The notes below the pieces were generated by a model, which was not told the DNA's origin, made no database searches, and was given only the letters and a program-made list of their open reading frames with translations. From the IMG/VR virus record IMGVR_UViG_3300034069_001154, positions 87 through 64,086 of that record: DNA of 64,000 nt; one strand, 5' to 3'. The stretch comes from a virus. The translations under genes and the position numbers were made by a program. This document shows positions 350-3,046 of this stretch, one piece after another; position 1 is the first letter of the stretch, and every line of letters starts with the position of its first letter.

Positions 350-616
350 AAAAATTAAACGACAGGGAGTTAATCATTCAAAAATGATTTCCTATGCGAC
401 TCCCTATCTCTACCAGTACCGTGCCGCACATGTGCCCAAAAACCCAAGAATGCGGTGCCTGACGTACATAGCTTACCTGTTTCGCTACAAGGGTATCCTA
501 GTATTAGATAATTTGAACTATAAAACTAGGCAAAATTCATTCATCCGATTTACCTCTTTCCCCTATCGGCTGTTGATAGGACATCTACTCCAGGACTTAC
601 GGAATCCTTTCTATTC
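350..616 (-). ncRNA. multi-copy structured ncRNA, copy A
   Basis: Shares GAATTTTG-helix-TTTTATAG, ACCC-TGTAGCG, AAGCTATGTACG-CAGG, CGGTACTGGTAGAG and a terminal stem plus U-tract with 4 other loci; own promoter at about 616-635; ends approximate. Confidence 0.75.
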
Positions 617-629
617 ACATATAAGGAAT

Positions 630-720
630 AGAAGGCATTTGAACCGCAATGTTATTTTCCTGAGCTATTCCTATCTTAGATAGAACATCTACTCCAGGAA
701 TTACGGAATCCTTTTTATTC
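630..720 (-). ncRNA. partial copy (5' domain only) of the multi-copy ncRNA
   Basis: About 45 nt nearly identical to the 5' end of copies A and D (GGATTCCGTAA.TCCTGGAGTAGATG) with own promoter at about 720-740, then diverges. Confidence 0.5.
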
Positions 721-742
721 ACATATAAGGATTTAAGAGTAT

Positions 743-1492
743 TTAAGGTAATACTAATCTCAGACCATAGGTACGATATAATATATCCCTCACTACTTCA
801 AAATCTCTGAAACTATTTATCAACCCACTTCTCGGGTCCAGTACATAAGTATTATTTACAATACTATCTGACAGAATAAGGCCCTCTATTACATCAACTG
901 CATTCATAATTTCTTTATTTTCCACATAGAATCGATTTACAATTGCACTTGAGTAATCAACTAATGCTCTGCCACCATGCTTCATTCTATAAAGTTCGAT
1001 GTCAAAATCATTAATCAAAGGAATATCACTCAGTGGATCTCTTCCGAATTCAAATAATCTAAGAGTTGATACACCAAAAGAAAATACAATATAATTATCT
1101 CTAGCAATATCATAATTCAAGTCATGTAACTCACTATCTATCTCCACAATAAAATTATAATCTGGAAATAGGTAGTCAGCCAAGAAATAATTTCTATTGC
1201 GGCCTTTTTCACTTACATTGTATTGGTCGCATAAACTATTCCAGTATTTCCTATTCTCTATTAAAAGTGGGAACTCCCTGATATTATATAGAGATGGGTA
1301 ATAATCTTTAAGTAGTTTCCTAAAATTCGGAGACCAACTACTACCTTGATTTAAATTATTTATTCTATTTCTTGCAAGATTAATCTTATTACCTTTAATA
1401 GAACTTATATACTTGGGAATAATAAAATCGCCTAACCTAAAAGAGTATTCCCTGTTATCTTTTAGGTATCTCATTAATAAATTCTTTTCCAT
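743..1492 (-). CDS. Vsr/DUF559-like (EDxHD-type) endonuclease
   Basis: ADYLFPDYNFIVEIDSELHD motif typical of Vsr/DUF559-like PD-(D/E)XK nucleases; clear paralog of 57296-58069. Confidence 0.7.
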   Translation of the reverse strand: MEKNLLMRYLKDNREYSFRLGDFIIPKYISSIKGNKINLARNRINNLNQGSSWSPNFRKLLKDYYPSLYNIREFPLLIENRKYWNSLCDQYNVSEKGRNRNYFLADYLFPDYNFIVEIDSELHDLNYDIARDNYIVFSFGVSTLRLFEFGRDPLSDIPLINDFDIELYRMKHGGRALVDYSSAIVNRFYVENKEIMNAVDVIEGLILSDSIVNNTYVLDPRSGLINSFRDFEVVRDILYRTYGLRLVLP

Positions 1493-1517
1493 ATACTAGT
1501 AAGGGATCTAGAGGACG

Positions 1518-1809
1518 AAAAAAAATGGCGAAGAGCTAGCTACTCAAAAACAGCTATCCTTTCGACTCTTCACCTCTACTAGTACCGTAATCTAAGTGAT
1601 GTATGCTACACTAGATCTCCTGCGTACATAGCTTTCCTATATCGCTACAAGGGTTCCTCAGTATTAGGTAAGAGGGCTCTATAAAACTGAGTGTAAATTA
1701 AAGCCACATGGTCTCTCACTATCAAGACTCCCATGCCCCTGTTTTTATTATGCATACTTGAGACTGTTCATATACTTCTACAAAGTGTACACTCATATAC
1801 TTTCATCTC
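1518..1809 (-). ncRNA. multi-copy structured ncRNA, copy B
   Basis: Conserved blocks ACCCTTGTAGCG, AAGCTATGTACGCAGG, CGGTACTAGTAGAG, GAGTCGAAAGGA; helix CTCAGT/ACTGAG replaces CCTAGT/ACTAGG of copy A; promoter at about 1809-1830, U-tract at 1518-1525. Confidence 0.72.
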
Positions 1810-1844
1810 ACTATTAAGGATTCTAGGGGGGAAATAAAAAAAAT

Positions 1845-2042
1845 ATTAAGGGCCTCATAAGTAACCTATATTACTGAGACCCCACTGAATAACCTCCACA
1901 GTAGAAAACACCTTACGTAGTTAAGTTCATACAGCTCTTACCTAACCACGTACTACTGCTTCTGATTATCCTGATTTCCAGTTCTCCTCTTACACTGGCA
2001 GGTATTATATAAGATAAGAGTTGCTGTAATTATCTTATATAC
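1845..2042 (-). ncRNA. candidate structured RNA, about 200 nt, unrelated to the multi-copy family
   Basis: Promoter motif at about 2042-2062; hairpins TATATAAGATA/TATCTTATATA, CCAGT/ACTGG, TACGTGGTTAGGT/ACTTAACTACGTA; terminator hairpin plus U-tract; no ORF. Confidence 0.45.
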
Positions 2043-2098
2043 ACCATTAAGGAATTTAAGGCTTCCTAGGAGTATGTTCTTGTATGTTTCCTTCTTAC

Positions 2099-3046
2099 TC
2101 ATCTCTTTCCCTTTATCAGTCTGTTAATAAATCGAATCTCCTGCGCAAGTCTCTTTCTACACTTCTCAGCCATCATCTTTTTCCTGCCAAGATACTCCAC
2201 TACCATACTAACTGCCTGATTAACGGTTCTCTTAGGTGATTCTGTGTAAAACTCATAACCTTTCAATGCAGCCTCCCCAAACTCAAGAGCACCTATCACA
2301 AAACTATCTAACATGTAATGGCCATAGTTCTTGTGAGGGTCCGGTATCTTGTCTAGGTATTCTTTTCCAATCTCCCAACGTCTACTAAGTATTCGCCTAA
2401 GATCTTCCCTAGCTGAATCCCTCTTCTCACCTACTACCTCCTTTCTATGATGCATCGCCTTACCACTTGCATAATATTTAAGACGAAGCTCACTAATACT
2501 ATGCTCCTCCTCCATATACATCTTCCTGGCTTGATCTGACTTACTCTGCTCTAACATATCATGACACCTACCATCTACCTCAATATACATCTTCAAGGTA
2601 GTACTATAAAGGTCAAGTGATATATAAGACTTACCACGCTCAATAGGATCACACACATCGCACTTATCACAACACTCAATCCATCGCTGTTTGTTTAGCG
2701 GCACAATATACTCGGGGATAAAATCAAAAATACCTGCCCCCGTACTATCTGCCGCACTTAAGACAGCGAGATCATCAAGCACCATCCTCATATAAGTGCT
2801 ACTTGTGAATGAATTGTTTAATAATGAGTTTTCACCCTCCTCACGTCTGGCAATAATTTTAATACTCTTCCTCTTAGTACTGCCCTTTGTAGGATTGCCA
2901 TAAATACTACGAGGAAAATAAATACCATCCCTCGTATTTCCAGAACCGTCAATGATAGGATTAAAGGCAACACACTCCTCAAAAACACGATTACCTGGTA
3001 CTAATACTTTGTCCAGGATTTCTTGCTTAACCTGTTTTTCTTTCAT
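2099..3046 (-). CDS. Vsr/DUF559-like (EDxHD-type) endonuclease, divergent
   Basis: SLDLYSTTLKMYIEVDGRCHD motif; the W..C...V....R.Y pattern upstream is shared with the other two copies. Confidence 0.6.
   Translation of the reverse strand: MKEKQVKQEILDKVLVPGNRVFEECVAFNPIIDGSGNTRDGIYFPRSIYGNPTKGSTKRKSIKIIARREEGENSLLNNSFTSSTYMRMVLDDLAVLSAADSTGAGIFDFIPEYIVPLNKQRWIECCDKCDVCDPIERGKSYISLDLYSTTLKMYIEVDGRCHDMLEQSKSDQARKMYMEEEHSISELRLKYYASGKAMHHRKEVVGEKRDSAREDLRRILSRRWEIGKEYLDKIPDPHKNYGHYMLDSFVIGALEFGEAALKGYEFYTESPKRTVNQAVSMVVEYLGRKKMMAEKCRKRLAQEIRFINRLIKGKR

Follow-up and report, generated by a model that had tools for sequence, protein, structure and literature searches.

Why should the genes of one nuclease family be followed, again and again in phage genomes, by the genes of one structured RNA? 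This question is raised by a stretch of viral DNA of 64,000 nucleotides (nt), positions 87 to 64,086 of the IMG/VR record IMGVR_UViG_3300034069_001154, which is called the window below. It carries three genes for nucleases with a Vsr-like fold and several copies of a noncoding RNA (ncRNA), and a preliminary description of it proposed that the RNA might be a scaffold, guide or inhibitor (antitoxin) of the nucleases, or that both might travel as one selfish cassette. The association of nuclease and RNA is real, strong and conserved across divergent phages. The explanation preferred here, to which a probability of about one half is given, is that the three genes are free-standing homing-type endonucleases which spread among, and perhaps amplify, the repeated RNA genes, using them as landing sites and not as guides.

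Nuclease 1 (743-1492, minus strand, 249 amino acids (aa)), nuclease 2 (2099-3046, minus strand, 315 aa) and nuclease 3 (57296-58069, plus strand, 257 aa) are homologous open reading frames (ORFs) joined by a single family profile (E 1.1e-108 for nuclease 1 and 2.6e-80 for nuclease 2), nuclease 2 being a divergent paralog with 18-22% identity to the other two. Mapping of the RNA copies with the covariance model R1 confirmed that all three have a same-strand copy downstream, which begins within ~300 nt in each case; with six RNA starts on 2 x 64 kb, such adjacency is expected by chance at ~0.014 per nuclease and at ~3e-6 for all three. Nuclease 1 has its own promoter motif directly ahead of the ATG and is flanked upstream by RNA copy B (1518-1805, minus strand; 164.5 bits, E 3e-48) and downstream by a partial 5' copy (677-747, minus strand) and copy A (346-612, minus strand; 176.1 bits, E 8.8e-52). 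The partial copy consists of the promoter and the first ~50 nt of an A/D-type RNA, belongs to repeat family D6 and is 83% identical to copy A; the nuclease 1 cassette may have left it behind as a scar of recombination. In nuclease 3, the stop codon falls, as had been described, within the promoter motif of copy E (58086-58342, plus strand; 185.7 bits, E 1.1e-54), at a site where two RNA copies are present in the syntenic relatives G002 and L083. Downstream of nuclease 2, where the preliminary description had placed a 200-nt structured unit, there is indeed a unit, but it is made of a small ORF of 49 aa (1953-2102, minus strand), which overlaps the nuclease 2 stop codon (ATGA), and a terminator-like hairpin with T-run (about 1833-1883, minus strand), which ends the unit of nuclease 2 and the small ORF. 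Both are kept in all four relatives that have a nuclease of this type (L088, L091, L121 and L122), with an indel junction of L122 lying at the 3' edge of the hairpin, and an extra cassette of a 266-aa nuclease and RNA is found in relatives between the nuclease 2 gene and copy B. The two other copies, C (30679-30966, minus strand; 140.2 bits) and D (31005-31272, minus strand; 176.7 bits), stand without an adjacent nuclease, as was stated from the start; copy D heads this nuclease-free array, and the gene upstream of it encodes a protein of 341 aa that is not a nuclease by the family profile.

The record behind the window is 64,686 bp long, nearly all of which the window covers, and is rated 19% complete, so a full phage genome of ~340 kb should be expected. 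A BLAST search of the INPHARED phage records gave tRNA matches only and no close deposited phage. Metagenome contigs of 315-346 kb carry close homologs of the window genes, and the host phages of the nuclease and RNA families are a group of ~340-kb gut jumbo phages. For a survey of gene neighbourhoods, 76 metagenome loci were chosen by an exact RNA-core pattern alone, and 43 of them contain true copies. These loci, the window and four relatives gave 65 distinct nuclease ORF pieces, and the next same-strand feature downstream is the RNA in 55, another nuclease piece in seven (three split genes, and four nuclease-2-type genes followed by the 266-aa nuclease), the end of the locus in three and anything else in none. 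Seen from the other side, 51 of 113 distinct full RNA copies follow a nuclease, another 51 follow an RNA copy, and eight head an array with no nuclease in front; four of these eight arrays are entirely nuclease-free (the C/D array of the window and that of L138 are nuclease-free arrays). Each nuclease is accompanied by one to three RNA genes, and the close nuclease homologs in L081 and L083 have the RNA as well. The co-occurrence of nuclease and RNA across phage genomes, a check called for by the preliminary description, holds far beyond chance and includes divergent phages. Nuclease clusters and RNA clusters largely correspond (Spearman 0.38), although the table includes orthologs and so is no test of co-evolution. 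Pattern scans of IMG/VR gave mostly chance matches: the first was true in two of 21 loci (three matches), and a scan with the RNA pattern of the distant phage G003 found only G003 itself.

The RNA is a new structured family, previously uncatalogued, with strong covariation. It is ~260-300 nt long with a conserved core of ~200 nt, and every copy has the promoter motif at its start and a long stem followed by a U-run at its end. In the consensus structure, which was built from ten copies (window and two sibling contigs), P1 encloses a variable inner hairpin, a three-way junction is formed by P2 (UACC/GGUA), P3 (GUAGC/GCUAU, with a conserved 11-nt loop) and P4 (GUAC/GUAC, with a variable extension), and P5 is the terminal stem. 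Application of R1 to the metagenome loci found 107 copies, and on their alignment, whose fitting to the R1 model somewhat favours the pairing figures, standard pairs occupy 96.3% of cells, compared with 85.3% when shuffled and 30-42% when the partners are slid; changes on both sides are seen in 23 of 34 pairs. In addition, G-U pairs are frequent at fixed positions, which ties the pairing to the strand that is transcribed. Helix P2, like the ACUGGUAGAG stretch next to it, is nearly invariant and without covariation. No copy matched Rfam 15 at gathering thresholds across the window, nothing credible was met at E <= 10 on positions 1-3700, and ARAGORN found no tRNA within the copies. Riboswitch, tRNA-like, tmRNA, RNase P, SRP and 6S identities were dropped because nothing in Rfam or ARAGORN supports them. 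As a separate observation, a hairpin with loop TAGTCTGAGATAGATTGG and a T-run lies at window positions ~35-80 (minus strand) and recurs nearly letter for letter in the distant contig L163 (3770-3800, plus strand); GAGATAG also opens the terminal stem of the ncRNA, and this hairpin may be a shared termination or processing signal.

Related genomes of ~340 kb contain at least ~10 RNA copies each, the numbers per genome being lower bounds summed from separate loci, and this copy number, together with the RNA's own strong signals, suggests a function in the phage that requires high dosage. By analogy with amplified tRNAs, a role as an anti-defence decoy can be guessed. Public RNA sequencing data gave two wastewater or aquatic runs with ~5% of the sampled words, one of which is probably DNA; their low-depth contigs covered 605-844 and parts of nuclease 2 and were uninformative on expression.

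As for the proteins, the nuclease core has the Vsr/DUF559 fold according to profiles and a structural model. The preliminary description called the genes Vsr/EDxHD-like, of which the Vsr-like fold stands, while membership in the I-Bth0305I/EDxHD family proper is doubtful. With Pfam, nuclease 3 matches DUF559 at 23.4 bits, above the cut-off of 20.6, and the others stay below threshold, nuclease 2 with DUF559 at 14.4 bits and nuclease 1 with PvuRts1I-like_N only, at 13.7 bits. An AlphaFold2 model of nuclease 3 (predicted local distance difference test (pLDDT) 85.8), compared by VIA-align over residues ~49-176, superposes on the DUF559 protein 3hrl (Z 9.6, root-mean-square deviation (rmsd) 2.3 A, 91 aa), on the catalytic domain of I-Bth0305I, 3r3p (Z 8.3, rmsd 2.6 A, 92 of 98 residues) and on Vsr, 1cw0 (Z 6.5), and it also matches mitoribosomal RAP-type proteins and FASTKD4 (Z 6.2-7.8). 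Foldseek against the PDB returned only weak rows, with PvuRts1I best at E 6e-3. The family profile run against PDB sequences reached the Vsr-like domain of PvuRts1I (E 1.8e-5) and 3hrl (E 4.3e-4), whereas 3r3p was not reached at E <= 10. Across paralogs of 18-45% identity, D108, E119, D121, H125, D126, D130 and R133 are invariant or nearly so, and they include the acidic and histidine block E119-x-D121-x3-H125-D126, which may correspond to the composite E, D, x, H, D motif of the EDxHD enzymes and Vsr. In the model, the nuclease domain is central (~49-176), preceded by a short beta-rich N-terminal part and followed by a helical C-terminal domain. Because this domain order differs from that of I-Bth0305I, the family is filed as a Vsr/DUF559-fold family which resembles I-Bth0305I in the core only. 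Neither a NUMOD match (Pfam) nor a RuvC or HNH effector domain (Pfam and fold searches) was found in the window nucleases, which showed the Vsr-like domain only, and no PHROGs family matched any of four nucleases. The family as a whole comprises 518 clusters at 50% identity (E <= 1e-3).

Nuclease and RNA come and go together between close relatives. The window and L122, whose flanks are 99% and 96% identical, differ by an extra cassette of the 266-aa nuclease and RNA, which in L122 is placed between the nuclease 2 unit and copy B, with the break exactly at the boundary of T-run and promoter. Copies D and C are all that the window has at the Hsp20 site, whereas L153 has an insert of 2.7 kb with two nucleases and extra RNA copies, and in L081 a nuclease is found there between RNA copies; the L153 junction lies inside the conserved RNA core, copy C being composed of the 5' part of one L153 copy and the 3' part of another. 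Orthologous sites are thus polymorphic for the presence of the cassette, and such differences between near-identical genomes fit the earlier suggestion of a selfish cassette in which nuclease and RNA travel together. Changes in RNA copy number also occur with no nuclease involved. Furthermore, three independent lesions of nuclease genes were apparent (a 1-nt indel each in L104 and L131, and in L102 a deletion of 29 nt), and the RNA copies adjoining the apparently broken nucleases still score 170-184 bits.

The pairing also extends to very distant phages. Of 72 long ORFs, G003 (362 kb, 92% complete) has only 17 in common with the window, at 22-48% identity and in no syntenic order. It has one full-length nuclease homolog, followed by two tandem, strongly diverged RNA copies; a scan of the whole G003 genome found no RNA copy apart from these two. 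They escaped R1 under default filters, and a search of 800 nt without filters aligned them over their full length, but at no better than E 0.07-0.08; they are called homologous because of motif order, position and the intermediates L166 and L190. The MAFFT alignment A8, intended for a second covariance model, is poor in its 3' half. In L190, two RNA copies lie downstream of a homolog of 383 aa (R1 E 1.8e-14); in L166 a copy lies just upstream of the nuclease homolog (E 4.3e-7), in L163 a probable copy is likewise upstream, and in L164 a copy downstream was recognised by eye. The homologs of L169 and L192 have no RNA downstream, and those of L168 and L189 are followed by other short promoter-to-terminator units. 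Such units without an ORF near distant homologs (L163:3420-3770, L168:3310-3480 and L189:1085-1225, all on the plus strand) may represent additional families of small RNAs, or else copies too diverged to be recognised. Finally, the homolog P0079 of L165 (profile E 2e-29) is located ~60 nt upstream of a tRNA array instead of the RNA, the array consisting of tRNA-Leu(UAA), tRNA-Met and tRNA-Gln. This arrangement fits a parallel with the phage endonuclease SegB, which is taken up below, and not the idea of a guide RNA, as tRNAs cannot be nuclease guides. The tRNA-Leu(UAA) gene (L165:1677-2451, plus strand) is itself split after U34 by an intron of ~690 nt with an HNH_3 ORF; ARAGORN recognises tRNA-Leu(taa) in the spliced sequence, and Rfam calls no group I intron there at E <= 0.01.

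The signal in front of these genes is the motif CCTTAHWWGT, which has 23 sites in the window against 3.45 expected, most of them 1-15 nt ahead of start codons on the coding strand (for example 322-331(-), 12130-12139(+), 28434-28443(-), 54180-54189(+) and 57286-57295(+)). It sits within a longer CCCT.AAATCCTTAATAGTG-like consensus, and the same type of motif is found throughout G003. The motif probably serves as promoter for an RNA polymerase that the phage encodes, in which case transcripts would be leaderless or nearly so, and its count suggests dozens of other promoter-bounded units per genome.

The nuclease genes behave as selfish free-standing endonuclease genes do: paralogs are numerous, their presence is patchy, some decay, and they insert between conserved genes. 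According to the preferred explanation, the nucleases would be free-standing homing-type DNA endonucleases with a Vsr/DUF559-like catalytic core, and the RNA would be a separate, self-transcribed structured gene family, whose repeated members would be landing sites, hence the nuclease genes immediately 5' of them. Being conserved, the RNA genes would offer a target for cleavage, homology arms with which to repair the break, or both; a nuclease gene would be acquired, lost or duplicated along with the RNA copy next to it, the two forming a promoter-to-terminator cassette, and the same process may generate the tandem RNA arrays, like SegB with the tRNA genes of T-even phages. The RNA would be cargo or target, not guide. 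Four things are inferred: that the nuclease cleaves DNA, that its target lies in or close to the RNA gene, that homing takes place, and that the RNA is of any benefit to the phage.

Several points weigh against homing into RNA genes. No column of the RNA core separates nuclease-adjacent copies from the others, and a column-by-column search for a target-immunity signature, with nuclease-adjacent copies set against RNA-adjacent ones, gave a best p of 0.001 over 389 columns, a value that falls short of significance and has relatedness as a confounder. The RNA of G003 is confined to the nuclease-adjacent pair, which looks like one unit and not like the invasion of a pre-existing array, and the persistence of the pairing across lineages so distant (17 of 72 ORFs shared; also L190 and L166) would also agree with a functional partnership. 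Vsr-fold RAP/FASTK proteins bind RNA (PMC11879112), which makes an RNA-directed role of the protein conceivable, and the 1-nt frameshifts of L104 and L131 could be assembly errors. Because the pair persists as a unit in G003 and in very distant lineages, the probability of the homing explanation is held at the level given at the outset.

If the pair is instead functional, the RNA would be a scaffold, specificity factor, inhibitor (antitoxin or self-immunity) or guide, and the whole a new RNA-associated nuclease element. This is considered unlikely, even though the conservation in divergent lineages, the occurrence of the G003 RNA only beside the nuclease and the correspondence of clusters are in its favour; the last of these, as stated, includes orthologs and does not show co-evolution. 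Moreover, a stop codon within the RNA promoter recalls the guide RNAs that overlap the 3' end of tnpB, the near-invariance of P2 and ACUGGUAGAG without covariation is what would be expected of a protein-binding site, and the Vsr fold is used by the RNA-binding RAP/FASTK proteins. However, the variable segments of copies A-E had no match above chance in the DNA of the window and G003 (best 14 nt, E 0.055), and these variable parts are themselves hairpins. Each of the one to three RNA genes per nuclease has its own promoter and terminator, intact RNAs persist beside apparently broken nucleases and in nuclease-free arrays (C/D and L138), one clear homolog precedes tRNA genes, and the L169 and L192 homologs lack the RNA downstream. 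The guide, scaffold or antitoxin role put forward in the preliminary description is therefore not supported. In particular, that the Vsr-fold protein and the RNA form a ribonucleoprotein, in which the RNA sets, gates or blocks nuclease activity, is thought rather unlikely; if true, the cassettes would form a novel class of mobile, RNA-associated nuclease elements that has no relation to the RuvC/HNH guide-RNA systems and has spread among the jumbo phages of the gut.

Two further explanations dispense with either the partnership or the selfish nuclease. It is improbable that the two genes have no specific relation, nuclease genes merely accumulating where insertion is tolerated between small transcription units and hitch-hiking on array recombination. 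Every unit has its own promoter and terminator, so insertion between units would be harmless, and distant homologs do adjoin other small units or tRNAs; yet in 55 of 55 resolvable cases it is this RNA that comes next downstream, despite the dozens of other promoter-bounded units suggested by the motif count, and the same pairing recurs in lineages without synteny. The loci mapped already point to nuclease genes lying closer to this RNA than to other intergenic junctions of promoter and terminator. It is very improbable that the protein is not selfish at all and is a dedicated processing or stabilising factor for the adjacent RNA, like the Vsr-fold RAP proteins, as the structural matches to mitoribosomal RAP-type proteins and FASTKD4 and the constant order of protein gene and then RNA might suggest. 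Divergent paralogs are many in each genome and are accompanied by RNA copies of their own, genomes that are 96-99% identical differ in the presence of whole cassettes, and some nuclease copies are apparently pseudogenes; in addition, the best fold matches are DNA nucleases (3hrl, 3r3p and Vsr) and the full metal-binding and histidine set is invariant.

Some other features of the window may be recorded. Between nuclease 2 and a divergently transcribed gene of 677 aa lies a gene-free, G+C-richer stretch (3047-3681, 630 nt), which is 96% conserved in L122 and has no credible Rfam match (a single one at E 6.2). Paralogous genes of ~675 aa are found at 3682-5715 and 46822-48846 (both plus strand) with 72-77% DNA identity over long blocks; they make up repeat families D1, D3, D7 and D8 and have homologs of 46-48% identity in G003. 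Two group I introns at the Rfam gathering level (52464-52734 and 53407-53668, plus strand) fall in the gene region 49971-54109, called polA in the preliminary description.

The outcome is an RNA family tied almost one-to-one to a large uncharacterised nuclease family, and the RNA is flagged as having a probable high-dosage function in the phage, anti-defence being one candidate. Among known systems, type III toxin-antitoxin loci (ToxIN) likewise have a protein gene adjoining tandem repeats of a structured RNA; there, however, RNA repeats of ~36 nt precede an endoRNase toxin in one operon, whereas here RNAs of 260-300 nt follow a DNA-nuclease-like gene as separate transcription units. The OMEGA systems (IscB and TnpB with omega-RNA) share with the present cassettes a nuclease gene of a mobile element whose 3' end adjoins or overlaps the gene of a structured RNA, but the window family has no RuvC or HNH domain, no complementarity was found in the window and G003, and the RNA has its own promoter and terminator, occurs in one to three tandem copies and is without a variable guide derived from the flank. 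Should the partnership be true after all, it would be a new kind of RNA-associated nuclease.

I-Bth0305I, the prototype of the EDxHD homing endonuclease family (PMC3239194; PDB 3r3p), resembles the window nucleases in its Vsr-like catalytic fold and phage origin, and perhaps in its conserved acidic and histidine residues, and its family includes free-standing genes. Unlike them, it is intron-encoded and has N-terminal DNA-binding modules of the NUMOD type and a C-terminal nuclease, while here the nuclease domain is central and Pfam sees the family as DUF559 and PvuRts1I-like. The closest parallel in arrangement is SegB of T4, a homing endonuclease inside a tRNA gene cluster (PMC2330249), whose activity leads to segmental amplification of neighbouring tRNA genes and whose co-localisation with tRNAs holds across phages (PMC13096335). 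As in T4 and T6, a free-standing endonuclease gene is here located among small structured RNA genes and statistically linked to them across phages; in the case of SegB, the RNA genes are both target and flanking sequence, and the nuclease, by its activity, multiplies the neighbouring RNA gene in tandem. The differences are that SegB is a GIY-YIG enzyme and the present family has the Vsr/DUF559 fold, that the partner is not a tRNA but a new RNA family of ~260-300 nt, and that many paralogous nuclease-RNA cassettes occur per genome, for which homing and cleavage would be presumed. If the homing explanation is true, these phages provide a second case, independent of the first, in which endonuclease genes have specialised on the genes of small RNAs and possibly amplify them, and the result obtained with SegB and tRNAs would be extended to another nuclease fold and to a non-tRNA RNA.

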